Counted from the first letter of the stretch, positions 4,116 through 63,800 are shown. The stretch: 64,000 nucleotides of DNA from Tepidisphaerales bacterium (GCA_038329865.1 JBBQNK010000005.1:1-64000), one strand, 5' to 3'. The notes: generated from the letters alone by a model not told the origin. Made by a program: numbers and translations.

Positions 4116-4403
4116 CGCTCCAGGAAATCAACGATCGGTTCGCGTCCGGTTGCAGTCGCATGGGCTACCAGCCCATGCTTTTGCGTTAAGAGGCATGGGC
4201 TGTTAGCACATGCGACGAAAATCCGATTTGCACTGCACCCCAACCCATTTATCCCGCCGCCAGTGTGCTCAGATCGTCTCACCCGCAAGCGGTTTTCGCG
4301 CGCAGAGATAAATCGGCGACGATTCCCTTGTACGCCGTCCGCCACGAATCCACCTGCACGCGGGCGAGCGCGGGAATATCGGATGCTTCGGCAGGACGGA
4401 TAT

Positions 4404-10636: not shown

Positions 10637-10845
10637 TCGCGTGAGTCTGACTTTTGTGGCACGGGCGGCTCGCCCTTGTGTTTGCTACACACCGAAGACC
10701 ATGGGCGAGCCGCCCATGCCACTCCGGACAACGTCATTGCAACTCGATTCCACCGATTTGGAACAGAAAATAAAAACCCGCCGGCGACTCGGAAAGTCAT
10801 CGCCGGCGGGCATCTTGTGGCTTGTTGCCGTCGCGCGTTGTTTGA

Positions 10846-11343: not shown

Positions 11344-11482
11344 TCGATGCTGCTATCATCGGACGACTTTATGAATTGCTTGTGTTAATTTGGGTAGTTT
11401 TGGTAATTGGGGTATAAATTCTTTTATAGGACGGTTTTTTGCATCTAAAACCGCACTTTCCCGGAAATCGGGCGCTCACGCC

Positions 11483-11554
11483 GGTGTCTGAGGTACTCCG
11501 AAGGCCCGGATCGGTCGGGCGAAGAATCCGGGTCTTCGGAGTACCTCAGACACC
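11483..11554. repeat. REP/MITE-like palindromic element, family A (GAGGTACTCCGAAGG core)
   Basis: Inverted repeat ggtgtctgaggtactccgaaggcccggat ... atccgggtcttcggagtacctcagacacc. The same core recurs at 22561-22639 and 39440-39635. Confidence 0.7.
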
Positions 11555-11704
11555 AGCGTGTGAAAATTTGCCCGAAAATGAGCCCCGAGTGACCCGTTTC
11601 GAGAATGTTTCACCCCGCCCAAGGATTTTCTCGACGCGTTCCACACCATGTTGTAATGTTGGATCAATCAACACCCCGGCGATCGCACACGAGGCTTTTT
11701 CACT

Positions 11705-13243: not shown

Positions 13244-13608
13244 CGAAATTCGAATGACGAAATTCGAAATTCGATTGAAATTCGAATTACAAAAAGAATT
13301 CTGGCGTACGGGCTTCAGCCCGCGCGTCAGTCCTTCAACCAAATCACACTCTCCGGTAGCGCGTCAACTTGTATTGTTCCTCTCCCGGTATTCCGGGAAA
13401 GGGTAGGGTGAGGGTTCGGATTCCCGGGCCGAACGGTATTCAAATCGAAAAGACGTTGGCCTCGGTTGCGTTCTATCAATCGCCGATCGTATGAGCAAAC
13501 CGACAGAACCCTCACCCCGCCCTCTCCCGGCGTACCGGGAGAGGGAGAAATGCGCCTGCCGATTGAACGAATTTCGTCATTCAATCGAATTTCGTCATTC
13601 GAATTTTC
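13243..13608. mobile_element. MITE-like composite element with nested inverted repeats (outer cgaaattcgaa-type arms, inner family-B arms)
   Basis: The outer IR is ttcgaatgacgaaattcgaaattcg (13243-13290) against cgaatttcgtcattcaatcgaatttcgtcattcgaa (13562-13608). The inner IR is cctctcccggtattccgggaaagggtagggtgagggttc (13378-13416) against gaaccctcaccccgccctctcccggcgtaccgggagagg (13510-13549). The element has no ORF and lies between convergent genes. Confidence 0.55.
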
Positions 13609-15836: not shown

Positions 15837-16464
15837 AGGTCGAATCGCTTTCGATTGGAGCGATCTGACGCGACCATCCGTCACGGTTCACAACGAACTT
15901 GCGTTCGTGGCTACCGACGGATTCGGATCTTCACGTCAAAAAGCCCAGACGTTCAACACCCTCAACGATTTTCATCGTTGAAACGCGGAAACGTCTTCAT
16001 CGCACAGCGCTGGCTCGGAAGGTGATCAACACTGAATGTGCTGATCCACAGAGGCTTCGCCTCTGCACAGTGGAGCTTGCGTTGCGCCCTTTCACAGGCC
16101 TACGGGGTTAGCTGACGGGCTAGGGCTTGAAAGTGCCCCGGGACTTTTGTGAGTCCCTTAGCCCCCGGTGAGCAGTAACTTCCTTCTGCTCACCCTTGGG
16201 TTCCCCGCGTCGCACCATCGGGCACGACCTCGGCGGTCACATAACACGGCTGATAGCGTGACACGTTTTTGGGAGATGTCAATGGTCTTTTTGCACACGC
16301 GTTTTGCACATTCGCTCAATCGTTTGCAAGGGCGGGAGTTATGAACAATCTTGGGGAAAAGTTGAGTTTCGGGGCTCGAATTTCGGGTTTCAGGGATGAT
16401 GGATTTGATCCACTCAGGACTCGATACTCGCAAACCCAGACCTCAGGACCCGGAGCCCCAGGAG

Positions 16465-19915: not shown

Positions 19916-20014
19916 ATTATTACCACAGAGGCCAAAGAGGCTCACAGAGAGGGCAGAGAGAGGAAATCCAAAACACTTCTCTGTGCTCTCTGTGAAGCTT
20001 TGTGAGCTCTGTGG
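19916..20014. repeat. palindromic repeat, family C (CACAGAG / CTCTGTG arms)
   Basis: ccacagaggccaaagaggctcacagagagggcagagagagg ... ctctgtgctctctgtgaagctttgtgagctctgtgg. A related copy lies at 33538-33610. This one sits between the pgsA stop and the ribBA start. Confidence 0.55.
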
Positions 20015-20674
20015 TTAATTCTTTTCCGCGTCGGCCTCAGTCTGCAATTGCCGCACACCTTGCACCACATAATCCACCGCCGCGACGCAAGCGACGACTG
20101 CCGTCGCCCACCACAAGCTTTTCAGCAGCGGCGAAACGACGCCCGGATGAATCCGGTAGAGATCATCCGCGAGGATCGTCGCCATGACCAGCGCCAATTG
20201 TATCGCCGTGCCGAGCTTACCGGCGAGTCGGGGCTTGATGCTCACTTTTCCGCGGAGCACGAGCAGCACAATCGTGCCGACGCCCAGCAGCACGTCTTTG
20301 GCGTAAACTATGACCACAACAGGAATTGGGATCGCCCAAAGCCCGCCCGCGACGGCCGGGGAGCTGAGCAGGACGAGGGAGGCCGCCACCAGCAGCTTGT
20401 CGGCCACTGGGTCGAGCAGCGCCCCGAGTTTACTGGCCTGGTTGAGCCGCCGGGCGAGGTAGCCGTCGAGCTTGTCGGTGATCGCCATGACCGCAAATAC
20501 CGCCAGCGCGGCGTACTTGTGGGGCCGCCCCGCCGACTGATCCACCGGCACGTCCGCCAGCAGCAGCCAGATGAAGACCGGCAGCAATAGCAGTCGCAGG
20601 AACGTCAACCCCATCGGCCAAGTGATCGGGCCGGTAGGTTTTGTGATGTCGAGATGGAGCTGCCGGTGCGGCAC
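20015..20674 (-). CDS. pgsA: CDP-alcohol phosphatidyltransferase (phosphatidylglycerophosphate synthase-like)
   Basis: DKLDGYLARRLNQASKLGALLDPVADK, which is the D-G-x-x-A-R...G-x-x-x-D-x-x-x-D signature, in a ~200-aa 4-6 TM protein. Confidence 0.8.
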   Translation of the reverse strand: MPHRQLHLDITKPTGPITWPMGLTFLRLLLLPVFIWLLLADVPVDQSAGRPHKYAALAVFAVMAITDKLDGYLARRLNQASKLGALLDPVADKLLVAASLVLLSSPAVAGGLWAIPIPVVVIVYAKDVLLGVGTIVLLVLRGKVSIKPRLAGKLGTAIQLALVMATILADDLYRIHPGVVSPLLKSLWWATAVVACVAAVDYVVQGVRQLQTEADAEKN

Positions 20675-20692
20675 GTGTTAATCATAAGGGGA

Positions 20693-20800
20693 AATGCAGA
20701 ATGCGGAATGCAGATTGCAGAATGAAATTCGCCGCCTTCCATTCTGCATTCCGCATTCTGCATTCCGCATTTCGCCCTCCCTCTGCATTCCGCATTCTGC
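20693..20800. repeat. long hairpin built from tandem heptamers (GCATTCT/GCATTCC) in inverted orientation
   Basis: gcagaatgcggaatgcagattgcagaatg - spacer - cattctgcattccgcattctgcattccgc, then a further ctgcattccgcattctgc. It lies in the 150-bp divergent region between pgsA and the ORF at 20824. Confidence 0.6.
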
Positions 20801-20823
20801 TTTTCCTCCGTAGAATCCCCCGC

Positions 20824-21552
20824 ATGCCCGACGTACAAACGCTCTGCGAAATCGGCTCTGAAGAATTGCTCGAGATGCGTTACCTCGAATCGATCCTAAC
20901 GTTCGAGCAGGCCGAGAAGATCGCGCTGAATAATAAGGATTGGGACACGATCGCCCGGCTGTACATGCCGCTGCAGGAAGCCCGCCGGCAAGTCCGCCAG
21001 CGCTGCGGCGAAGGGATCGTGCAGCTCGATCTGCTCGCCACATCGCCCAGCGACCAGCCGGACGGCGTCGCGATTATTCAGCGACTGCCCCACGGCCAAT
21101 TACTCGTGGCGGGCTGGGCGTCGATCGCGCCCGCGATTCAACTCCGGCGACTCGCCAGGGAGAAAAAACTCTACGTGGAAACGTATCTCGCCGCGGTTTA
21201 CCCCGTCGGCGAAGGACGCGTCGTCGCGATCGTGCCAACGGCCGACGTGAAATTGCCCAACGACTCGCCGCGATCGATCGACAAGCTCATCAATCTACTG
21301 CCGCTGCATTCGATCGTCTTGCCGATCAGCGAGCTGCCAAAAGGCCCGCGGCTCGGCACGCCGGAGACGTACGCCGAAACAATGGCGATCTGGGAACGCC
21401 TGGCCGCCCCCTTCCTGGCGGCGGCGGATATGCAGGTCGATCCGGTCCAGAAGATTCATGGCTACCGGGCTACAATCGCCGTGGATTATGCGTGTGAGTT
21501 GGCGCATCAGAAACTATCCGATGTGGCCAGGGAATTGGGAAGAAAAAGATAG
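20824..21552 (+). CDS. hypothetical protein
   Basis: A 242-aa ORF starting at the first ATG after the heptamer hairpin. I did not recognise any motif. Codon usage is consistent with its neighbours. Confidence 0.45.
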   Translation: MPDVQTLCEIGSEELLEMRYLESILTFEQAEKIALNNKDWDTIARLYMPLQEARRQVRQRCGEGIVQLDLLATSPSDQPDGVAIIQRLPHGQLLVAGWASIAPAIQLRRLAREKKLYVETYLAAVYPVGEGRVVAIVPTADVKLPNDSPRSIDKLINLLPLHSIVLPISELPKGPRLGTPETYAETMAIWERLAAPFLAAADMQVDPVQKIHGYRATIAVDYACELAHQKLSDVARELGRKR

Positions 21553-21627
21553 GGATTTGGTATTTGGTATTGGGTATTTGGTTTGATCCTGATACCAAAT
21601 ACCCAATACCCAATACCAAATACCCAC
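21552..21627. repeat. long perfect hairpin built from tandem heptamers (GGTATTT/GGTATTG)
   Basis: gggatttggtatttggtattgggtatttggt - ttgatcctga - taccaaatacccaataccaaatacccac. AT-richer than the flanks. It lies between two co-directional genes. Confidence 0.65.
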
Positions 21628-22534: not shown

Positions 22535-22560
22535 ATCAGCTCATCATACTAAAAGACAAT

Positions 22561-22639
22561 CGTCATCCTGAGGTACTCCGAAGGATCTAGCCCACTCGCG
22601 CGAATAAGCTAGATCCTTCGGAGTACCTCAGGATGACGA
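22561..22639. repeat. REP/MITE-like palindromic element, family A
   Basis: cgtcatcctgaggtactccgaaggatctagc ... gctagatccttcggagtacctcaggatgacg is a near-perfect 31-bp inverted repeat. Confidence 0.75.
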
Positions 22640-30320: not shown

Positions 30321-30489
30321 TGAACCACGGAGGCGCGGAGACACCGAGCCACGCCCGACCGACCCGCGCCGCTCCGCCGGCTTGGCCACACCTCAACACA
30401 AATATCCAGGAGGCAAGATTGTACAAAACGCTGAGGGCGCCTCCGTGTCTCCGTGCCTCCGTGGCAAATTTACCGCTATACTAGCAGGC

Positions 30490-31284
30490 ATGTTTCGCCT
30501 CACCCGTGAAGTCCGCTTCTCTATCAACGCTACGCCCGACGATCAGCTCGCCGGCAAGCCGACGAACAGCTTCGGCGGGTTTCCCTCGCTCACCGGGCTC
30601 GGGCATTATTTCACGCTGCAGGCGACGCTCGTCGGACCGCTGGATTCCGCCAGCCGGTATCTGCGGAACATCAAGGAGATCGACGCCGTCGTCCGCAAGC
30701 TTGCTGTGCCGTTTGTGGAGAAGGTGATCCGCGAAAAATCCTTCGGCGGCGGTGGGAATGTGGTGCGTGACCTGTTCGAACTGCTCAAAGACCAGTGGCC
30801 GGGCGCGACGCTTGAGCAGGTTTCGCTCGCGCAGACGCCGTTTCAATCATGGCACGTTTTAGCCAGGGAGTTACCGATGGTGCGACTGAGTCAAAAATTC
30901 GAATTCTCCGCCAGCCACCGCCTGCACAACCCGGCGTTGCCCGCCGACGTAAACGAAAAAACCTACGGCAAGTGCAACAACCCAAATGGACACGGGCACA
31001 ACTACGAAGTGCAGGTCACGCTAGCCGGCCGGCCGAACGCAAGCGGCGTGCTCATCGATGTTCCCGCGATGGAGCGCCTCGTGAACGAGGCCGTCATCGT
31101 CCGATTCGATCACAAAAATCTCAACCTGGAGCTGCCGGAATTTAAAGACGTGATCCCGACGGTGGAAAACATCGCGATGACGATTTTTCGCCTGCTCAAG
31201 CCGAAGTTCAGCCCGGCAGGCGCAACGCTGGCGAGCGTGACGGTATGGGAAACGCCCAAGACCTGGTGCGAGTATTCAGAGTGA
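30490..31284 (+). CDS. two-domain 6-pyruvoyl-tetrahydropterin synthase family protein (PTPS/QueD-like)
   Basis: The C-terminal module carries the PTPS zinc/catalytic signature CNNPNGHGHNYEV and SASHRL. The N-terminal module is a degenerate duplicate. Start taken at the ATG at 30490. Confidence 0.7.
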   Translation: MFRLTREVRFSINATPDDQLAGKPTNSFGGFPSLTGLGHYFTLQATLVGPLDSASRYLRNIKEIDAVVRKLAVPFVEKVIREKSFGGGGNVVRDLFELLKDQWPGATLEQVSLAQTPFQSWHVLARELPMVRLSQKFEFSASHRLHNPALPADVNEKTYGKCNNPNGHGHNYEVQVTLAGRPNASGVLIDVPAMERLVNEAVIVRFDHKNLNLELPEFKDVIPTVENIAMTIFRLLKPKFSPAGATLASVTVWETPKTWCEYSE

Positions 31285-31353
31285 TTGCGGATTGCGAATT
31301 GCCTAACGCCTAACGCCGACCCTATTCAACTTTCAATCAACAATCCCCAATCC

Positions 31354-39439: not shown

Positions 39440-39635
39440 GAGAATTCGTCATTCTGAGAGGGTATTTAAAAGATCCCCCACAGCGTCATCCCGAGGTACT
39501 CCGAGGGATCTCGGAAGGACCGAAGTCGCTGGATATCCCGAGATTCCTCGGAGTACCTCGGAATGACGGAGTTTTATAAATTGAGCTCTGGAGACTTTTA
39601 AGACACCCTTTGAGGTGCTCCGAAGGATGACGAGC
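39440..39635. repeat. cluster of REP/MITE-like family A copies (one full palindrome plus degenerate half-copies)
   Basis: The full copy is cgtcatcccgaggtactccgagggatctcgg ... ccgagattcctcggagtacctcggaatgacgg (39485-39570). Partial copies are cgtcattctgagagg and tgaggtgctccgaaggatgacgag. Confidence 0.7.
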
Positions 39636-40990: not shown

Positions 40991-41140
40991 GATCGGAATA
41001 TCGTAACGGATCGGGGAATGAATTCGAGCGAGAGAATCATTTGAGTTTTGCGGCTTTCGTGGCACGGGCGGCCCGCCCGTGTTTTGCATCAGCTGAAAAC
41101 CATGGGCGAGCCGCCCATGCCACTTCAAACTGACCACGAC

Positions 41141-49686: not shown

Positions 49687-51315
49687 CTATTTCGCCATCG
49701 AGACGGCCGGCGCGGCGGCGTTGACCGACGGCACTGCGGTGAAGTGCATGCGGCCGTAGTTTTCGGTCAGTTTGTTCAGCGGACTGTAACCGACGAACAT
49801 CACCACCAGCATGATCGCGCACATGAGTGAGACCGCGACGCCCAGCGGGTTGCCCATGAAGGCCGGCTGATCGGAGTTGAGCAGGAACATCGACCGCACC
49901 ACGCGCATGTAGAAGTAGAGGCTGAGCACCGTGTTGATCAGGATGACCACCACCAGCAGCCACCACCAACCGCCGGTCTGGATCAGGGCCATGAGGATGT
50001 TGAACTTCGCGAAGAATCCCGCGAGCGGCGGTAAGCCAACGAAGCTGAACATGAACGCCGCCATGCAAACTGCCAGCACCGGGTTTCGCCGCGAAAGGCC
50101 GGCGTACCCTTCGAGCGTTTCAATGCCCGTCTGCTTGAACACCAGGCCGGCCACGGTGAACGCGCCCAGGTTCATGAACAGGTACACCGCGAGATAAAAC
50201 AGAATCGTGCGGGCGGAGATCGAAGTCGGATCGGTCACGCTGCCGGCCTTGAGCAGCAGGGACATCGCACACAGCATGTAACCGGCATGGGCGATGGAGC
50301 TGTAAGCGAGCAGGCGCTTGATGTTGTTCTGCACGAAAGCGGCCGTGTTGCCGAGGGTGGCGGAGAGAGCGCCCATCACGCCGAGCACGATCGCGATGAC
50401 CGCCGGCGCGGAAAGCAGTTCGCCGTTCATGCCGTTGAAGTGGTACGCGTCGGCGATGTTGTTCACGACGCGCAGCAGCAGGACAAGGGCCGCGCCCTTG
50501 CTGGCGACGGAGAGGAACGTCGTCACTTCGATGGCCGCGCCTTCGAACACGTCCGGGCACCAGAAGTGGAACGGCACGGCCGCGATTTTGAAACCGATGC
50601 CGACGACCAATCCAAAAACCGCGACAACGAGCAGCGCCGTTCCGCCGGTGGTGGCGGGCATCTTAGAGGCCAACTCGGAGAGGTTCAGCGTGCCGTACAG
50701 CCCGTAGAGCAGCGACATGCCGTACGTCATCACCGCGCTGGTGGCGGCGCCGAACAGCACGTACTTGAGGCTCGCTTCAGCGTCGGTCTTGTTGGTCTTA
50801 CGGAAGCCGGCCAGCACGTAGCTGGGGAAGCTGGCGAGTTCCACCGCGAGCAGGATCATGAGCAGGTTGTTGGCCGACGCCATGAGGGCCATGCCGGTGG
50901 TCGCACCGAGGAGCAGGACGAAGAACTCAGGGCCGTCGCCTTCATGCATGTCGGCGGCACTGGTGGCGAACCACATCATGATCACGCCGATCACGAAGAC
51001 CAGCAGCAGGATTTTCCAGAGGAACGCGATCGGATCGGCCACCAGCATCGGCGCGAACTTAGTGGCCTGCAGGCCCGCATCAGGGCTGACGTATTGAACG
51101 TAAAGAAGGCTGAGCAGCGCGATCACCAATCCCGCCAGTGCCACCAGGCCGCACGCGGTGTTCGACTTTTTCACGAAGAACGGCGTGAGCAGCACCGCGA
51201 CGATCGTGCCGATGAGCGTGAGCTCGGCGATGAACGGGCGCAGCTCCGTCCAGCCGGGGATGAAGGGTAAGCCGATACTTGCAAGAGACAGGATCATCAT
51301 TCGCTTTCGTAGCAT
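49687..51315 (-). CDS. nuoN: NADH-quinone oxidoreductase subunit N
   Basis: 14-TM antiporter-like subunit; its position after nuoM. Confidence 0.85.
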   Translation of the reverse strand: MLRKRMMILSLASIGLPFIPGWTELRPFIAELTLIGTIVAVLLTPFFVKKSNTACGLVALAGLVIALLSLLYVQYVSPDAGLQATKFAPMLVADPIAFLWKILLLVFVIGVIMMWFATSAADMHEGDGPEFFVLLLGATTGMALMASANNLLMILLAVELASFPSYVLAGFRKTNKTDAEASLKYVLFGAATSAVMTYGMSLLYGLYGTLNLSELASKMPATTGGTALLVVAVFGLVVGIGFKIAAVPFHFWCPDVFEGAAIEVTTFLSVASKGAALVLLLRVVNNIADAYHFNGMNGELLSAPAVIAIVLGVMGALSATLGNTAAFVQNNIKRLLAYSSIAHAGYMLCAMSLLLKAGSVTDPTSISARTILFYLAVYLFMNLGAFTVAGLVFKQTGIETLEGYAGLSRRNPVLAVCMAAFMFSFVGLPPLAGFFAKFNILMALIQTGGWWWLLVVVILINTVLSLYFYMRVVRSMFLLNSDQPAFMGNPLGVAVSLMCAIMLVVMFVGYSPLNKLTENYGRMHFTAVPSVNAAAPAVSMAK

Positions 51316-51375
51316 GGGCTACCAGCCCATGTCATGGTGCGCACCGGGTCACGGGCTGGTAGCCCGTGCTACGCT

Positions 51376-53034: not shown

Positions 53035-55377
53035 CTACCGAGACAACACCACCACGATCGCACCTGCGATCGAGACGGCGATCACGCACATCAGCACGGT
53101 CACGTACAGCCGAACGCGGCCGGTCTGCGGCGAGCGGACGGCTGAGCCGATCGACTGCGCCAGCGCGCCGGCGCCGTTCACCGCGCCATCGACGATGTAC
53201 TTATCATTCGCGCCCATCAGGAACGCCGTCTGCCGGCCCAAGTACGCGACGAAGTTCACCGCGCCGTCGACGATCAGCCGATCGAACGCCGCCGCCAGGT
53301 ACGACAGGAACAGCACCGTGCCGACGAAGACGAACTTGTACAGCTCATCAAAGTACATGCGGCGGTACAGCCACGTGTGAATCCACTGCAGCGGCGGAAT
53401 CTTCATCAACGCGTTGGCGATGCCGTAGCCGTTCATGTACATGAAAAAGCCCAGGCCGAGCGCGATCAGCCACGCCCATCCGCCGAGCAGTGCGTCCTTC
53501 ATTTGTTCTTCGCCGTGCTCGAGCAGTTCCTTGGTGGTGTGAAGCGTGTGCGGGACTTCGGCGTTGTCGACGTTCGTCTTCCCGCCGATGGCTCCGCCGG
53601 TGGCTTTGGGGGATTGGCCGTGCGTGGCGCCCGGTTCTTCCGCGACGTGTTCGGAATGCGCCGCTTCGGGCGTGGCGGGCGTGACGCCTTCAGGCGGAGG
53701 CGTCGGCCAGGCGTTGGCGAACAGGTCGGTCGCAGGGTGCCCTTCGACCTGCACGATCTTGTTCATTTCCGTCTCAGCCGCCTCGATCATCTCGCGCACG
53801 CCGAGGAACCGCCCGCCGATGATCGCGGCGATCGCCAGCACCACCAGCGGGATGTACAGGATCGGCGACTCATGCGCGTGATCGTAAAGTGCCTGGTTCC
53901 GCGGCTTGCCCCAGAACGTCAGCGTCCAGCACCGCATCATGTAGAACGGCGTGACGTACGCGATGATCGCCGGGCACCAGAAGAGCAGCCACATGTAGTT
54001 ATGCCCGCCGGGAACCTTCGTTTGATCGGTGAGGAACCCGAACGCCGCCGCGTGCTGAAGAATCAAGTCCTTGGAATAAAAGCCGCTGAACGCGACCGTG
54101 AAATGCTCGGAGAAGGTGATCCCGAACCCGGCGATCGCAAAGACCGCGACAAGGAACGTGATGGCTGTCACCGGAATCTTGCGAAGCAGCCCGCCGTACT
54201 GCGGCAGCTCCTGCTCGTGGTGGGCGGCGTGGATCACGCTGCCGGAACCGAGGAAGAGCAAGGCTTTGAAGAACGCGTGCGTGATCAGGTGGAATAGCGC
54301 CCCCACCCAGCTGCCGACGCCGATCGCCAGGATCATGTAGCCCAGTTGCGAGAGCGTGCTGTAGGCCAGCACCTTTTTAATGTCGGATTGCGCGATCGCG
54401 ATCAGCGCCGCCATAGTGAGCGTGGTGCAGCCGATGATGCCGATAAAGAGCTTCGCGTCGGGCGTGAGAACAGGGAAAATTCGACCACAGAGATACACGC
54501 CGGCGGCCACCATCGTGGCGGCATGGATTAAAGCGCTGACGGGAGTCGGGCCTTCCATCGCGTCGGGCAGCCACACGTGCAGCGGGAACTGGGCCGACTT
54601 GCCCATGGCGCCGAAGAACAGACCGATGCCCATGATCGTCAGCAGCCCGCTGGAAAAGACCGTGCCGTTCGGCAGCGTGATCGCCGCGCCCGTGCCGGCC
54701 GTGTGCAGCAGGCCCCACATGCTCGGCAGGCTCACGTTGCCCAGGTGGTAGAACAAAATGCCAAAGCCGATGAGGAACCCGAAATCGCCGACGCGATTGG
54801 TGACGAACGCCTTGATGGCCGCGTTGCTGGCGGACTTTTTCTCGTACCAGAAGCCGATCAGCAGGTAGCTGCACAGGCCGACGAGTTCCCAGAAGATGAA
54901 CAGGTGCAGCGCCGTCCCGCCGATCACCAGGCCGAGCATGGAAAAGCAGAACAAACCTAAATACGTAAAAAATCGCGGGTAGCGTTTGTCCTCAGACATG
55001 TAGCCGATGCTGAAGATGTGCACGAGCGTCGCCACACCGGTGATCATGAAGAACATGACGACCGTGAGGCTGTCGACGTAAACGCCGACGTCGAGAAACC
55101 CGGTGTGATCCTGCGACAGCCCACTGCCGACAGGAATCCACTTCATCGGCAGGTTGATCGGCGCCTTGCCGAAGCCCCAGTCCTTGCCGTCGTGCTTGCC
55201 GCCGTCGAGCCAGGCGAACGTCGCCGCCGCCGAGCAAAGCAGGCTGCCGGCGATGAAGAGCGTGCCGACGTATCCCGCGATGGGGTTGCCCATCTTCTTG
55301 CCGAGAAACACGAGCACGATAAAGCTCACCAGCGGCAGCAGGACGGCGATCGAAAGTAGTAAAGCTGGAAGTGGCAT
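53035..55377 (-). CDS. nuoL: NADH-quinone oxidoreductase subunit L (with Pro/Glu-rich insertion)
   Basis: FPLHVWLPDAMEGPTPVSALIHAATMVAAGVYL block and the long C-terminal lateral helix. An insert (VEGHPATDLFANAWPTPPPEGVTPATPEAAHSEHVAEEPGATHGQSPKATGG) is present. Confidence 0.9.
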   Translation of the reverse strand: MPLPALLLSIAVLLPLVSFIVLVFLGKKMGNPIAGYVGTLFIAGSLLCSAAATFAWLDGGKHDGKDWGFGKAPINLPMKWIPVGSGLSQDHTGFLDVGVYVDSLTVVMFFMITGVATLVHIFSIGYMSEDKRYPRFFTYLGLFCFSMLGLVIGGTALHLFIFWELVGLCSYLLIGFWYEKKSASNAAIKAFVTNRVGDFGFLIGFGILFYHLGNVSLPSMWGLLHTAGTGAAITLPNGTVFSSGLLTIMGIGLFFGAMGKSAQFPLHVWLPDAMEGPTPVSALIHAATMVAAGVYLCGRIFPVLTPDAKLFIGIIGCTTLTMAALIAIAQSDIKKVLAYSTLSQLGYMILAIGVGSWVGALFHLITHAFFKALLFLGSGSVIHAAHHEQELPQYGGLLRKIPVTAITFLVAVFAIAGFGITFSEHFTVAFSGFYSKDLILQHAAAFGFLTDQTKVPGGHNYMWLLFWCPAIIAYVTPFYMMRCWTLTFWGKPRNQALYDHAHESPILYIPLVVLAIAAIIGGRFLGVREMIEAAETEMNKIVQVEGHPATDLFANAWPTPPPEGVTPATPEAAHSEHVAEEPGATHGQSPKATGGAIGGKTNVDNAEVPHTLHTTKELLEHGEEQMKDALLGGWAWLIALGLGFFMYMNGYGIANALMKIPPLQWIHTWLYRRMYFDELYKFVFVGTVLFLSYLAAAFDRLIVDGAVNFVAYLGRQTAFLMGANDKYIVDGAVNGAGALAQSIGSAVRSPQTGRVRLYVTVLMCVIAVSIAGAIVVVLSR

Positions 55378-55447
55378 AATTCAGTCGGCAGCGGGCAGCG
55401 GGCAGCGGGCAGTTCATACTGCCCGCTGCCCGCTGCCATCTGCCCGC

Positions 55448-55798
55448 TTATCCTTTAAGGTTCGAAGCACGCTCCACGTCGATCGTTGTAAAATTGTTGT
55501 AGAAGTTCAGGAAAATCGCCAACGCCACCGCCGCCTCAGCAGCGGCCAGAACGATCACGAAGACCGCGAAGATCTGCCCGTTCAGCGCCGGCTCGCCGTG
55601 CGTGCCGGCGTAGCTGAAATAGTTGAACGCGACGAGATTCACGTTGGCCGCGTTCAACACCAACTCCACGCCCATCAGAATGCCGATCGCGTTGCGCTTG
55701 AGGAGGATCGTCATCAACCCGCAAACGAACAGAAACGCGCCCAGCACCAAATAATGGTGCAGGCCGATCGTCGTAACGGTGATGGCGAGAACGTTCAT
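55448..55798 (-). CDS. nuoK: NADH-quinone oxidoreductase subunit K
   Basis: A ~100-aa 3-TM protein with the conserved LNAANVNLVAF region and the Glu residues. Confidence 0.85.
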   Translation of the reverse strand: MNVLAITVTTIGLHHYLVLGAFLFVCGLMTILLKRNAIGILMGVELVLNAANVNLVAFNYFSYAGTHGEPALNGQIFAVFVIVLAAAEAAVALAIFLNFYNNFTTIDVERASNLKG

Positions 55799-55891: not shown

Positions 55892-56479
55892 TTACGACCA
55901 CTGCCGCATCGTCTTCGATGCAGGTGTTCTCCCGAGTTTCAAATCTTCCGCTTCGTGACGGCGTCCCTTCGCGAGGTACGCCGCGCCGATCATCACTACC
56001 AGCAGCAGCACGCTGGCGATTTCAAACGGGATCAGATAATCGCCCAGCAGTGCCTGCCCGAGAGCGAGCAGCGGGTACTTGCCTTCCAGGTTCGGCTCAG
56101 CCGCCGGGAACGGGAAGCTGTGAAGCGCCAGCACGAGCGCTGCGAAAAGCACCGTACCGACGACGAGCGCGATCGCCACTTCGCCCGGCTTAGGCTCGAA
56201 CTTGCTGAACGGCGATTTGCTGGTCAGCATCACACCGAAAATAATCAGGATCAGCGTGCCGCCCGCGTACACCACGAGTTGCACAGCCGCCAGAAATTCC
56301 GCGTGCAGCAGGAAGTACAACCCCGCCACGCCCATCAGCGTGAACAGCAAACAAACGGCCGTCCGAACAATGTTCCGCGACAGCACCAGCAGCAGCGCCG
56401 AGATCGCAGCCATCCCGGCGAAGGCGTAGAAGAGCACGGCTTCGGCGTTGGCGTTCGTGATTGAGTTGATGGCGTCCAT
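55892..56479 (-). CDS. nuoJ: NADH-quinone oxidoreductase subunit J
   Basis: VVYAGGTLILIIF and FEIASVLLLVVMIGA blocks. Confidence 0.85.
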   Translation of the reverse strand: MDAINSITNANAEAVLFYAFAGMAAISALLLVLSRNIVRTAVCLLFTLMGVAGLYFLLHAEFLAAVQLVVYAGGTLILIIFGVMLTSKSPFSKFEPKPGEVAIALVVGTVLFAALVLALHSFPFPAAEPNLEGKYPLLALGQALLGDYLIPFEIASVLLLVVMIGAAYLAKGRRHEAEDLKLGRTPASKTMRQWS

Positions 56480-56488
56480 TTTTGTTTC

Positions 56489-56557
56489 GGCGTTGGGCGT
56501 TGAGCGTTAGGCGTTGGGGGTCGATTGATCCCTAACGCCTAACGCCAAACGCCTAAC
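56489..56557. repeat. long hairpin built from tandem heptamers (GGCGTTG/AGCGTTA) in the nuoH-nuoJ spacer
   Basis: ggcgttgggcgttgagcgttaggcgttggggg - tcgattgatc - cctaacgcctaacgccaaacgcctaac. The loop shares ttgatcc with the hairpin at 21552-21627. Confidence 0.65.
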
Positions 56558-56565
56558 TACTTTCG

Positions 56566-58017
56566 TTAGGCCTTCACCAAATTCTCAGTCCCTTCATCGA
56601 TCGGCGACGGATCAGTCAACCGCTGCTTATGCCCGCGGCCTGTGGCGGCGGAGTAGAGCACCCAGCCGACGACCATGCCGAATCCTGTCAGGCCCACCAG
56701 CGTCAATACAACTTGCGTGATCAGCGAAGCCAGGCCGTCGTGCGCCCACGCGGCGAAATTCCACGGGTTGAAACCGTCCACCCACGGCAGGCCGGGATGA
56801 TCGGGGACGATCAACTGCCAGACCGCCCCGCACAGCAGCAGGATCATGCTCATCGGCAGCAGCACTTTGACGCAGGCGTAAAGCACTTGATCGATTCGCG
56901 GGCGCGGGACCGTCCAGCGAATCCACATCTGCACGAAGACGATTCCCATCGCCTTGGTGACGAAAATGCCGGCGGCCACGCAGTTGAGCAGCAGCAGCGG
57001 GATCGCGTTATTGACCGACGGGTCGGCCGCGTAAGTGACGTTCAAACTGTGGTTGAAGTAGCCGATCAGGCCGAACGGATCATTCCAGCCGCCGAGGAAG
57101 AGCGCCGTCTGAATTCCGCCGACGACGAACATTGCGGCGTATTCGGCGAAGAAGAAAAAGCTGAACCGCAGGCCGCTGTATTCCGTGTGGAAGCCGGCGA
57201 CCAGTTCCGACTCCGATTCCGGCAGATCGAACGGCGCCCGCTTGTTGCTGGCCAGCGAGGCAACGAAAAATACAAAAAACGAGAGGAAAACGAACGGATT
57301 TTTGTAAATCAGCCAAGTGTGAATCCCGCCCGACTGCATGTGGCCGAGCTCCACCATGTTCAGCGTGCCGGCCGCCATGATCGCGACCAGGATGCTGATG
57401 CCCAGCGGGATTTCGTAGCTCACCATCTGGCAGGCTTCACGCATCGCACCGTAAATCGACCACTTATTATTGGACGCCCAGCCGGCGAGGATCACGCCCA
57501 TCACTTCCACCGACAACATCGCGAGAATCCAGAACACGCCGACGTTCAGCATCGGCTCAAAGCAGAAGCTCGGCCCGAACGGCAACGCCAGGAACACCGC
57601 GAACGCCGGGGCGAACGCGAGGTACGGAGCCAGTCTATATAGAAAGTGGTCAGCCGAGGTGGGGATCAGGTCTTCTTTGAGAATCAGCTTCGCGCCGTCG
57701 GCCAAGGACTGCAGCAACCCGATCGGCCCGACGCGGTTAGGCCCCAGCCGCGCCTGCATGTGGCCGGCGACTTTTCGCTCCCACCAGATGCTGAACATCG
57801 CGACCAGCGAGACCGCCGGCAGGAAAATCGCCGCGCAAAGCGTCACGCCGTACACGAGTGTGAGCACCGGCCCGCGCTGGAGGCCGAGTTGGTCCTGGAG
57901 CAATTGCTGCAAGGAGAACGAAGGCACTTCCGCAGCGATCGGAATCGAGAAAGAAGTCATGGTCGCGCGCCAAATCGTGAAAAACGGCACGAATCCAACT
58001 GATACGCCCGCCGCCAA
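56566..58017 (-). CDS. nuoH: NADH-quinone oxidoreductase subunit H (extended N- and C-termini)
   Basis: ARLGPNRVGPIGLLQSLADGAKL and YAAMFVVGGIQTALFLGGW blocks. The ORF begins with TTG at 58017; an alternative start is the ATG at 57960. Confidence 0.85.
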   Translation of the reverse strand: MAAGVSVGFVPFFTIWRATMTSFSIPIAAEVPSFSLQQLLQDQLGLQRGPVLTLVYGVTLCAAIFLPAVSLVAMFSIWWERKVAGHMQARLGPNRVGPIGLLQSLADGAKLILKEDLIPTSADHFLYRLAPYLAFAPAFAVFLALPFGPSFCFEPMLNVGVFWILAMLSVEVMGVILAGWASNNKWSIYGAMREACQMVSYEIPLGISILVAIMAAGTLNMVELGHMQSGGIHTWLIYKNPFVFLSFFVFFVASLASNKRAPFDLPESESELVAGFHTEYSGLRFSFFFFAEYAAMFVVGGIQTALFLGGWNDPFGLIGYFNHSLNVTYAADPSVNNAIPLLLLNCVAAGIFVTKAMGIVFVQMWIRWTVPRPRIDQVLYACVKVLLPMSMILLLCGAVWQLIVPDHPGLPWVDGFNPWNFAAWAHDGLASLITQVVLTLVGLTGFGMVVGWVLYSAATGRGHKQRLTDPSPIDEGTENLVKA

Positions 58018-58068
58018 TTACAAATCGATTGGGTTGTTGTAATGGGGTGGGTTGGAGGTGTCAAGAAT

Positions 58069-58159
58069 AGGACTAAGGACTTAGGACTAAGGACTTAGTG
58101 AAGAAAAAATCGCTCCCGCATTTCTTTCACTAAGTCCTAAGTCCTGAGTCCTAAGTCCT
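58069..58159. repeat. long hairpin built from tandem heptamers (AGGACTA/AGGACTT)
   Basis: aggactaaggacttaggactaaggacttagtgaagaaa ... tttctttcactaagtcctaagtcctgagtcctaagtcct. It overlaps the last codons of the PCD gene and precedes the nuoH start. Confidence 0.65.
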
Positions 58160-58534
58160 CTGAATTCCCTCCACCTTCGCCGCGCAGATGAAGTCATTTT
58201 CCGTGACATCTCCCGCCGAGTGCGTGCTGTAAACCACGCCGCACTTGTTGTAACTCACCGCCAACTCCGGGTGATGGTTTTCCTTGTGGCTGATCTCGGC
58301 GATGGCGTTCACGAACGCGATCGTCTGGTGATAGTCCTTGAAGTTGAACGTCTTCTGAAGCAACTTCCCTTCCAGCGTCCACCCCGGCAGCGCGGCCAGG
58401 TCAAACTCGATATCCCCGGCCGCCACCACCTTGGGTTTGGTCGTGCAGTGTTTCTTGAGCAATTCGGCGTGGCGTTTATTGATGGTCATGGTGTCTCCGT
58501 GTTGGCAATATGATAGCACGATCGCCCGAATCAT
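58151..58534 (-). CDS. pterin-4a-carbinolamine dehydratase (PCD/DCoH)
   Basis: EGKLLQKTFNFKDYHQTIAFVNAIAEISHKENHHPELAVSYNKCGVVYSTH matches the PCD family core, including the HHP motif. The probable start is at MTINKR. Confidence 0.8.
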   Translation of the reverse strand: MIRAIVLSYCQHGDTMTINKRHAELLKKHCTTKPKVVAAGDIEFDLAALPGWTLEGKLLQKTFNFKDYHQTIAFVNAIAEISHKENHHPELAVSYNKCGVVYSTHSAGDVTENDFICAAKVEGIQRT

Positions 58535-58623
58535 CCCTCTGCATTCTGCCTTCTGCCCTCTGACTTCTCTTTAGGTTATGCTCCCCGGCTCAAACTTTTT
58601 TTTGAGACGAATCGAAAACCGCC

Positions 58624-63665: not shown

Positions 63666-63800
63666 GCCGTAACTTCCGTTCCTCTCCCGGTAATCCGGGA
63701 GTGGGCAGGGCGAGGGTTCTGCCGCGATTTTCGAACAGGTCGGCGAAGGGAACAGAACCCTCATCCCCCCTTCTCCCGGCGTACCGGGAGAAGGAGTAAG
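63666..63800. repeat. palindromic repeat, family B (CCTCTCCCGGTAxxCCGGGAG...GAGGGTTC arms)
   Basis: cctctcccggtaatccgggagtgggcagggcgagggttctg ... cagaaccctcatccccccttctcccggcgtaccgggagaagg. It is the same family as the inner IR of the element at 13378-13549. Confidence 0.65.

Follow-up and report, generated by a model that had tools for sequence, protein, structure and literature searches.

Convergent heptanucleotide arrays form long intergenic hairpins in a Tepidisphaerales bacterium

Heptamer-array hairpins of the window

A stretch of 64,000 nucleotides (nt) from a Tepidisphaerales bacterium (GCA_038329865.1 JBBQNK010000005.1:1-64000), hereafter the window, was analyzed for long hairpins assembled from tandem heptanucleotide repeats. 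Arrays were detected with Tandem Repeats Finder and the pairing of their arms with an inverted-repeat search. Five spacers of the window hold such hairpins, which consist of three to five tandem 7-mers followed by an inverted array, with arms of 22-39 nt that are 84-100% complementary. Four of the loci had been located by a first-pass annotation of the sequence and are present where it placed them, whereas a fifth, at 55382-55444 between nuoK and nuoL, had been missed. The same annotation described perfect stems of 25-38 base pairs (bp), which is overstated, as only the pairing of arrays A and B in the first element is perfect (22 bp) and the other stems contain one to five mismatches. The elements are palindromes with simple-sequence-repeat arms, that is, two convergent inverted arrays of mostly 7-nt and sometimes 8-10-nt units in three to five copies. 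The five hairpins, for which no strand is assigned, are organized as follows.

20688-20806, no strand: three-array heptamer element with arrays A, B and C, in which A pairs with either B or C
20693-20724: array A, G-rich, AATGCAG/AATGCGG
20738-20775: array B, C-rich, CATTCTG/CATTCCG, 22/22 pairing with A
20782-20806: array C, C-rich, CATTCTG/CATTCCG, 24/25 pairing with A
21552-21626, no strand: heptamer hairpin, four copies of GGTATTT/GGTATTG and then the inverted array; arms of 31 nt (94%), loop of 11 nt
55382-55444, no strand: heptamer hairpin, 3.7 copies of GGCAGCG and then the inverted array; arms of 27 nt with 25/27 paired (93%), loop of 4
56489-56557, no strand: heptamer hairpin, GGCGTTG/AGCGTTA and then CCTAACG; arms of 31 nt (84%)
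58068-58160, no strand: heptamer hairpin, four copies of AGGACTA/AGGACTT, a loop and the inverted array; arms of 39 nt (87%)

The first element occupies the divergent spacer that separates a CDP-alcohol phosphatidyltransferase gene (20015-20674, minus strand) from a conserved gene of 242 amino acids (aa; 20824-21552, plus strand). Its RNA folds have energies of -58.8 kcal/mol on the plus strand and -64.9 kcal/mol on the minus strand (z -7.9 and -8.3), and its DNA fold has a z of -7.5. The hairpin at 21552-21626 (-45.1 kcal/mol, z -8.4) has its first base in common with the last base of the preceding stop codon, TAG (21550-21552), and leaves about 14 nt to the ATG (21641) of an M48 peptidase gene. 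The whole nuoK-nuoL spacer is occupied by the hairpin at 55382-55444 (-61.4 kcal/mol, z -10.8), and the whole nuoH-nuoJ spacer by that at 56489-56557, which folds at -42.7 kcal/mol on the mRNA strand versus -54.3 kcal/mol on the opposite strand. The hairpin at 58068-58160 (-55.8 kcal/mol, z -8.9) is positioned between a pterin-4a-carbinolamine dehydratase gene and nuoH, and the arm that comes first on the transcribed strand shares sequence with the end of the gene upstream, namely its last codons and stop codon.

Folding and significance against chance

The window contains 12 arrays of period 7, against a mean of 0.45 and a maximum of 2 in 100 dinucleotide shuffles, and 0-5 arrays for each of the other periods in the range 5-11, with 0-2 for periods 5, 6, 8, 10 and 11. 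Head-to-tail repeats of a 5-11-nt unit that exceed the length expected by chance in their genome define long simple-sequence repeats in the sense of Mrazek 2007, and the window arrays have this property. As RNA, the five heptamer hairpins fold at -43 to -65 kcal/mol on either strand (z -7.6 to -11.4), and as DNA with z values of -7.5 to -10.5; none of the shuffles (0/200) folded equally well. The mismatches in the stems tend toward the variable position of the unit, which places 1x1 internal loops every 7 bp. The class of heptamer-array hairpins is real and statistically solid. A loop word, TTGATCC, proposed as common to two of the hairpins is indeed found at 21583 and 56525, but it occurs 14 times in the window and is weak evidence.

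Gene surroundings

The neighbouring genes were assigned by Pfam. On the plus side, the 242-aa gene, which has no Pfam family, is followed by the M48 peptidase gene; on the minus strand, the pterin-4a-carbinolamine dehydratase gene is followed by nuoH, nuoJ, nuoK and nuoL. Every element of the window is flanked by open reading frames (ORFs) that are long or supported by Pfam, in keeping with the rule that units not divisible by 3 in length stay out of coding sequence; the sole overlap is that of the edge of 58068-58160 with the last codons of a gene. As the first-pass annotation had it, the sites comprise a divergent spacer, a spacer between co-directional genes and spacers within the nuo operon; three of the heptamer hairpins are located between nuo cistrons and one is in the divergent spacer. 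The hairpins nearly fill these spacers. They start from 6 nt within the upstream gene to about 10 nt past its stop codon. Most leave 4-17 nt to the following start codon, the exception being 58068-58160, with 51 nt to nuoH. A strong hairpin is present at five of the six junctions of the gene string pter-nuoH-J-K-L-M-N in the window, where pter denotes the dehydratase gene.

Intrinsic terminators are recognized by a stem with a U-tract and by their place at the end of a transcription unit, and the window heptamer hairpins have neither property. No T-run or U-tract follows them, a terminator scan of the window reports none of them, and three are found between nuo cistrons, in agreement with the earlier view that they are not classical terminators. 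A search of Rfam at the gathering threshold finds no family at the heptamer hairpins of the window; under relaxed settings they match only eukaryotic microRNA-precursor models, on both strands and below threshold, and these matches reflect a generic long hairpin.

Several side observations concern the same genes. The nuoK-nuoL hairpin region (55372-55449, minus strand) gave a sub-threshold match to the Rfam Chloroflexi-1 RNA, with 30 bits against a gathering value of 80 and an E-value of 0.002, which is probably a G+C-rich hairpin resemblance only. For the deposited protein P0001 (283 aa), the start is placed at an ATG within the first heptamer element (20701-20823), so that its first 41 residues are the translated hairpin. 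Most of its listed homologues are 242-262 aa long and align from the ATG at 20824, and the start of P0001 appears to be miscalled. In the nuo operon, nuoH directly precedes nuoJ with no nuoI between them (55892-58017), and the order nuoH-J-K-L-M-N is also seen in related loci. The NuoH ORF is long, at 483 aa, and the Pfam domain covers residues 64-395.

Distribution in relatives and turnover at orthologous spacers

Two comparison sets were searched. Set 1 consists of 80 related loci (labelled L001 and so on) and the window, 1.44 Mb in all, and its hairpins were defined by a stem of at least 16 bp with at least 85% pairing; set 2, which is independent, consists of 79 metagenome contigs (285 kb). 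Together they cover about 1.7 Mb. L081 and L085 are duplicate contigs, and three entries from them were removed for the non-duplicate hairpin counts. The best match of NuoH has 90% identity and belongs to a Tepidisphaerales metagenome-assembled genome; the other matches are from Phycisphaerae and other Planctomycetota.

Set 1 contains 231 hairpins, among which 31 non-duplicate ones have tandem-repeat arms: 22 with period 7, six with period 8, and one each with periods 10, 5 and 6. In set 2, seven of the nine repeat-armed hairpins have period 7. For both sets, period 7 thus accounts for 29/40 non-duplicate repeat-armed hairpins, or 32 hairpins, 25 of them in set 1, when the duplicate contigs are counted. 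Absence from elsewhere had been named in the first-pass annotation as the sign of a coincidence; the repeat-armed hairpin class is widespread in Planctomycetota. Octamer arrays dominate in some relatives, for example CCACTTGG/GAAGTGGT in L037 (12796-20847), AGGCACGA in L003 (3649-3776), and others in L027 (4761-7107), and therefore the preferred period varies by genome.

The Logan assembly of SRR19962015 (L081), which was built separately, contains the first element (20688-20806) in full and the second (21552-21626) as far as the contig end within its 3' arm. An assembly error is less likely because this contig shows the same first element and most of the second, with the limit that L081 is not fully independent of the source assembly, as the same reads may underlie both.

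At orthologous positions the hairpins differ in sequence. Upstream of the 242-aa gene, the divergent spacer carries heptamer hairpins of the units GAATGCR in the window, AGGATGA in L082 and ATTGTCG in L084, and a decayed one in L086. In the spacer downstream of the same gene, the window has GGTATTK, L084 has GGTATTN with a long loop, and L086 and L088 have a period-10 GCAGAT hairpin; in L082 this spacer measures only 9 nt. The genes of L084 and L086 are 83-88% identical, yet this downstream spacer does not align between them. Within the approximately 1.7 Mb, GGTATT arrays are confined to the window and the orthologous spacer of L084. Because they are found nowhere else, the GGTATT element seems to have persisted since the lineages of the window and L084 split, the flanking protein now being 69% identical.

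A similar picture is obtained in the nuo operon, the gene order of which is conserved in the relatives. The nuoK-nuoL junction has repeat-armed hairpins of different units in the window, L001, L003, L006, L013 and L016, imperfect hairpins in L009, L011, L012 and L017, and a spacer of only 6-9 nt in L002, L014 and L018. A single nuo junction may hold a heptamer, octamer or REP-like hairpin, or be reduced to a spacer of 0-20 nt. The position of the hairpin recurs, its sequence turns over, and its presence is optional.

Structure is not a general rule for long nuo spacers in the relatives, as only 28/82 have z < -3. The proposal that only self-folding inserts survive in operon junctions does not hold generally, since most long nuo spacers are not significantly structured. 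The number of exterior unpaired bases does not differ from that in shuffles. No preference for gene context was found: 14 hairpins lie at co-directional, four at convergent and five at divergent junctions, versus 826, 257 and 234 for all junctions, a result that is only indicative because the underlying gene calls are crude and some are wrong (e.g., nuoJ in L001).

Arm relationship, polarity and repeat units

The two arms differ in composition in a directional manner. In set 1, G outnumbers C in the 5' arm of 27 of the 29 hairpins with unequal G and C (p = 1.6e-6); set 2 gives 6 versus 3, and both sets together 33 versus 5 (33/38 with a G-rich 5' arm). Adjacent arrays follow the order G-rich then C-rich in 23 cases and the opposite order in one. 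This polarity rule is independent of the transcribed strand because a palindrome reads alike on both strands. As ideas only, the polarity might keep a C-rich RNA arm, on which Rho could load, from being exposed transiently, or it might result from fold-back synthesis with G-rich single strands as primers.

The 42 adjacent array pairs comprise 23 reverse complements with at most one mismatch, five direct repeats, one plain complement (at 31283) and no mirror image. Variant positions are mirrored in the partner arm in 45 cases and not mirrored in 75, which fits one heterogeneous array that was copied in inverted orientation and then decayed. The arrays at 58068-58098 (100% match) and 20740-20800 (72%) also score a superperiod of 14 nt, which fits slippage by two units.

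The units have a conserved core with two or three variable positions, and they are diverse. The 97 elements in about 1.7 Mb carry approximately 89 distinct units, and at least seven different units are present in the window. Single-linkage clustering at one mismatch chains nearly all units together and does not separate them into groups. Among pairs of separate elements, a unit is shared by 8.6% of within-locus pairs versus 0.64% of pairs between loci, a difference of about 13-fold that was reached in 0/2000 permutations. In the window, the unit CCTAACG is present at both 31301 and 56531. GGATGAA hairpins occur at non-orthologous sites in several genomes, with loops and flanks that differ among the copies. 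The suggestion that one repeat-recognizing protein binds these sites is disfavoured, given that each window hairpin has its own unit and that the units are almost as numerous as the elements.

A transition in a stem appears as G·U when one strand is read and as A·C when the opposite one is, and selection on the RNA can be sought in this way. In the nuo spacers no excess of G·U is seen on the transcribed strand, with G·U versus A·C counts of 8 versus 9 in repeat-armed hairpins and 20 versus 29 in all hairpins. The idea that a 7-nt unit with a stop triplet provides stops in all frames was rejected, as the 5' arms stop 1.0 frames on average versus 1.11 when units are shuffled. Two-unit matches to the repeats of Geobacter, Xanthomonas, Beggiatoa and Nostoc and to STRR1-3 are no commoner in the 1.7 Mb than those of mirror-image controls; (GGGANTN)x2 has 2 matches versus 5 for its mirror control. 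The resemblance of a window octamer to the Geobacter consensus TCTCCGTS was likewise discarded as not significant, since such matches are no commoner than those of the controls.

Related arrays and other features of the window

Besides the five hairpins, the window contains two related hairpins with other periods and several solo arrays.

30325-30464, no strand: related hairpin with octamer arms CCACGGAG.../CTCCGTGT CTCCGTGC CTCCGTGG, 92-nt loop, upstream of a PTPS gene
19922-20015, no strand: related hairpin with 9-10-nt repeat arms CACAGAGRG / CTCTGTG, between ribBA and the phosphatidyltransferase gene
31283-31319, plus strand: two adjacent arrays, 2.9 copies of GATTGCG and then 2.4 copies of GCCTAAC, beginning within the stop codon of the PTPS gene
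58537-58564, plus strand: solo heptamer array, four copies of TCTGCCT/TCTGCCC, in a divergent spacer, 3 nt ahead of the dehydratase gene start
13244-13286, plus strand: solo heptamer array, six degenerate copies of CGAAATT, directly 3' of a stop codon
7862-7887, plus strand: solo 7/8-nt array, three copies of AATTTTCG, in a divergent spacer, fold z -1.2

The octamer hairpin folds at -71.1 kcal/mol (z -6.2). That at 19922-20015 has a fold z of -5.9, and its unit family is also present in L001, L017 and L028. The adjacent arrays at 31283-31319 form no hairpin (z +0.26) and are tandem-only, as previously annotated. The relation of the second array (TAACGCC) to the first (ATTGCGG) is one of plain and not of reverse complementarity, and the unit of the second is identical to that of the arm at 56530-56557. 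The solo array at 58537-58564 is unstructured (z +0.56), and that at 13244-13286 has a z of -1.2, its CGAAATT unit family being found also in L026, L028 and L037.

The window also has several recurrent families that are truly REP-like, and some of them share spacers with heptamer hairpins in the window and in relatives. One family, (C)GTAGCA/GTCGCATGGGCTACCAGCCCATGC, is found at 4155-4216 and 51308-51373 and in the nuo operon of the closest relative (L001, 14898-14957), and resembles GTAG-tagged REPs (PMC3733652). The palindromic family CGTCATCCYGAGGTACTCCGARGGATC has copies at 11477-11560, 22560-22639 and 39484-39568, with stems of 31-35 bp that are 93-100% paired, and a CGTC-like tag starts two of the copies. 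A composite repeat, TCTCCCGGTAWTCCGGGAG...GGGTGAGGGTTC, forms long hairpins at 13374-13549 and 63683-63791 and in L004, L033 and L144, also within nuo spacers of Tepidisphaerales. A further hairpin, GTGGCACGGGCGGCYCGCCC, recurs at 10656-10722 and 41059-41123 and in L005 and L016, and the related GCACGGGCAGGATGCCCGTGC is present in relatives.

The sole match at gathering level between Rfam and the window is a c-di-AMP riboswitch of the ydaO/yuaA type (16082-16245, minus strand; 63.7 bits against a gathering value of 38), which lies upstream of a minus-strand gene of 755 aa.

Comparison with known repeats

Heptanucleotide repeats are given as the most abundant long simple-sequence repeats in most prokaryotes, and polymerase slippage has been proposed as their source (Mrazek 2007, as reported in PMC4679880). 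No report of such heptamer hairpins in Planctomycetota was found in the literature searched, and the window elements represent a new phylum for an already described, unexplained class of bacterial intergenic repeats.

The Xanthomonas genomes contain 70-75 convergent GGGAATC pairs each, on opposite strands and capable of forming stem-loops, for which no function was found, and Nostoc has GGGGA(C/T)T repeats (Rehm et al. 2015, PMC4692102). Like the window hairpins, the Xanthomonas pairs are intergenic, have about four tandem heptamers with the G-rich array first (PMC4692102), are dispersed, usually lie near the upstream ORF, and vary among related species. In contrast to them, Xanthomonas uses one genome-wide unit with G-quadruplex potential, while here the unit changes with nearly every element and regular G3 tracts are seen only in (GGCAGCG)n. 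Divergent spacers show a depletion in Xanthomonas that is not seen here, in a small sample. In Geobacter metallireducens, pairs of sites on opposite strands and at variable distance consist of three to five tandem 7-9-nt units (Aklujkar et al. 2009, PMC2700814). One pair is located between the operon genes proB and proA, a related species is without them, and they were guessed to be IHF/HU-type sites (PMC2700814). The Geobacter sites share with the present elements several unit classes per genome, opposite-strand tandem arrays and, for the pair at proB and proA, a location in an operon; their classes, however, are multicopy families of 8-24 pairs with a consensus, and these consensus units are not enriched here.

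REP/BIME elements are intergenic imperfect palindromes tagged by GTAG or CGTC, often located in operons, for which roles in mRNA stability, termination and supercoiling have been proposed (PMC3733652). REPs are present in many copies of conserved sequence that bear an unpaired tag and are often associated with a RAYT transposase, whereas the heptamer hairpins have internally repetitive arms. The five window hairpins share no sequence, and neither a GTAG nor a CGTC tag flanks any of them.

The cyanobacterial STRR sequences of Calothrix and Nostoc have been known since 1990. For STRR and other heptamer repeats of cyanobacteria there is some reporter evidence of regulatory effects. STRR arrays are reported to form hairpins that host small mobile repeats (Elhai et al. 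2008). Among the TAACTGA repeats of the Beggiatoaceae, 'Maribeggiatoa' has 169 direct sets and one inverted set (PMC4679880). Both groups resemble the elements described here in their tandem 7-nt units, their intergenic location near gene ends, their sporadic occurrence across phyla and the lack of an assigned function, but they are mostly direct arrays of a few specific units, unlike the inverted pairs found here.

Origin and possible function

Starting from the observed anatomy, statistics, distribution, turnover, polarity rule and absence of terminator features, we infer that the elements are palindromes to which slippage and inverted duplication gave rise within spacers, and that they affect mRNA in the manner of REPs; we give this reading a probability of about 0.5. 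Arrays would lengthen and shorten in situ by one or two units at a time through replication slippage, and the inverted partner array would arise via inverted duplication or template switching between the arms, which may keep the two partly in step. The elements turn over fast and would be tolerated in spacers. Where the spacer is transcribed, as is presumably the case for the nuoH-J-K-L-M-N string, an RNA hairpin of -43 to -65 kcal/mol is predicted between the stop and start codons. Its most likely effect is a generic one, like that of REPs: it would block 3'-to-5' exonucleases, would serve as a substrate for double-strand-specific RNases, and would mask the sequence directly ahead of the following start codon, and therefore could tune the relative expression of neighbouring cistrons without being required. 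We do not think that the elements are terminators, sequence-specific operators or essential.

A more direct role in the RNA, by which the hairpins are selected at junctions as dedicated elements that stabilize upstream cistrons or direct processing by RNase III/RNase E, for instance of the nuo mRNA, appears unlikely. It would agree with their location in transcribed spacers, starting at or at most 10 nt from stop codons, with the strong hairpins at five of the six pter-nuoH-J-K-L-M-N junctions and the nuoK-nuoL hairpin of many relatives, and with the REP-like hairpins at equivalent junctions elsewhere, which could be a functional replacement. However, the mRNA strand lacks a G·U excess, the nuoH-nuoJ hairpin is stabler on the antisense strand, and the same junctions are without a hairpin in L002, L013, L014 and L018; one hairpin has decayed in L086, divergent spacers also hold hairpins, and the loops, of 4-92 nt, are unconserved. 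U-tract-less intrinsic termination, an alternative suggested by very stable stems directly 3' of stop codons, is highly improbable in view of the missing T-run and terminator-scan match, the lack of enrichment at convergent junctions, and the presence of three hairpins between nuo cistrons and one in a divergent promoter region.

Recognition by protein, on DNA or on single strands, was considered as well. In this view, a cold-shock-domain, HU/IHF-like or other nucleoid protein, for example, would cover one unit per footprint, and the convergent arrangement would allow paired binding. Cold-shock proteins have a heptamer footprint. The conserved core of the units with its two or three variable positions, the strict convergent polarity, the genome-specific unit repertoires, the GGATGAA hairpins at non-orthologous sites in several genomes, and the IHF/HU proposal for the paired tandem octamers and heptamers of Geobacter (PMC2700814) are in line with such arrays. 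Even so, we regard this reading with clear doubt, since the diversity of the units (at least seven in 64 kb, about 89 in 97 elements) argues against a single sequence-specific binder, units from other phyla are no commoner than mirror-image controls, and the 14-nt superperiod indicates slippage and not selection of each unit. Insertion of preformed hairpins as small MITE- or REP-like mobile elements would explain why hairpin spacers resemble a compact junction with an insert of 60-230 nt, why units recur within a genome, and why the niche is common with that of GTAG/CGTC-type REP hairpins. It is very unlikely, as no common terminal sequence, tag or target duplication is apparent in the loci compared, most units are unique, and copies of the same unit differ in their loops and flanks.

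Several observations weigh against an origin by slippage and inverted duplication. Simple slippage gives no reason for the dominance of 7 nt and the near absence of periods 4-6, and neither the G-rich 5' arm (33/38; array order 23 versus 1) nor the sharing of units within loci (8.6% versus 0.64%) follows from it. The GGTATT unit was kept at an orthologous spacer despite a flanking protein that is only 69% identical, and over half of the long nuo spacers in the relatives are not significantly structured. The points that go beyond simple slippage hint at a directional mechanism, dispersal or a sequence preference. As a further tentative possibility of rather low likelihood, the elements might be no passive products of slippage but the footprint of a cross-phylum machinery by which 7-8-nt tandem units are made or read and arranged as convergent pairs; the nearly exclusive 7-nt and then 8-nt period, the Xanthomonas-like polarity, the genome-specific units and the unit kept at an orthologous spacer would all fit it. 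This pattern would be expected either of a specialized protein whose footprint is a heptamer or of a directional transaction on DNA, for instance fold-back synthesis in which G-rich single strands act as primers.

Implications

The present data add Planctomycetota (order Tepidisphaerales) as a new phylum to those with heptanucleotide repeats, which here are mostly inverted pairs that fill operon junctions. They also offer regularities for the class, namely a strand-independent G-rich-first polarity, genome-specific units, and positional recurrence with sequence turnover. The hairpins break assemblies and apparently mislead gene callers into starting a protein inside one, as in P0001. They are worth including when operon expression in Planctomycetota is modelled. 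A cross-phylum machinery, if true, would account for the heptanucleotide excess in prokaryotes, a question that dates from 1990/2007.

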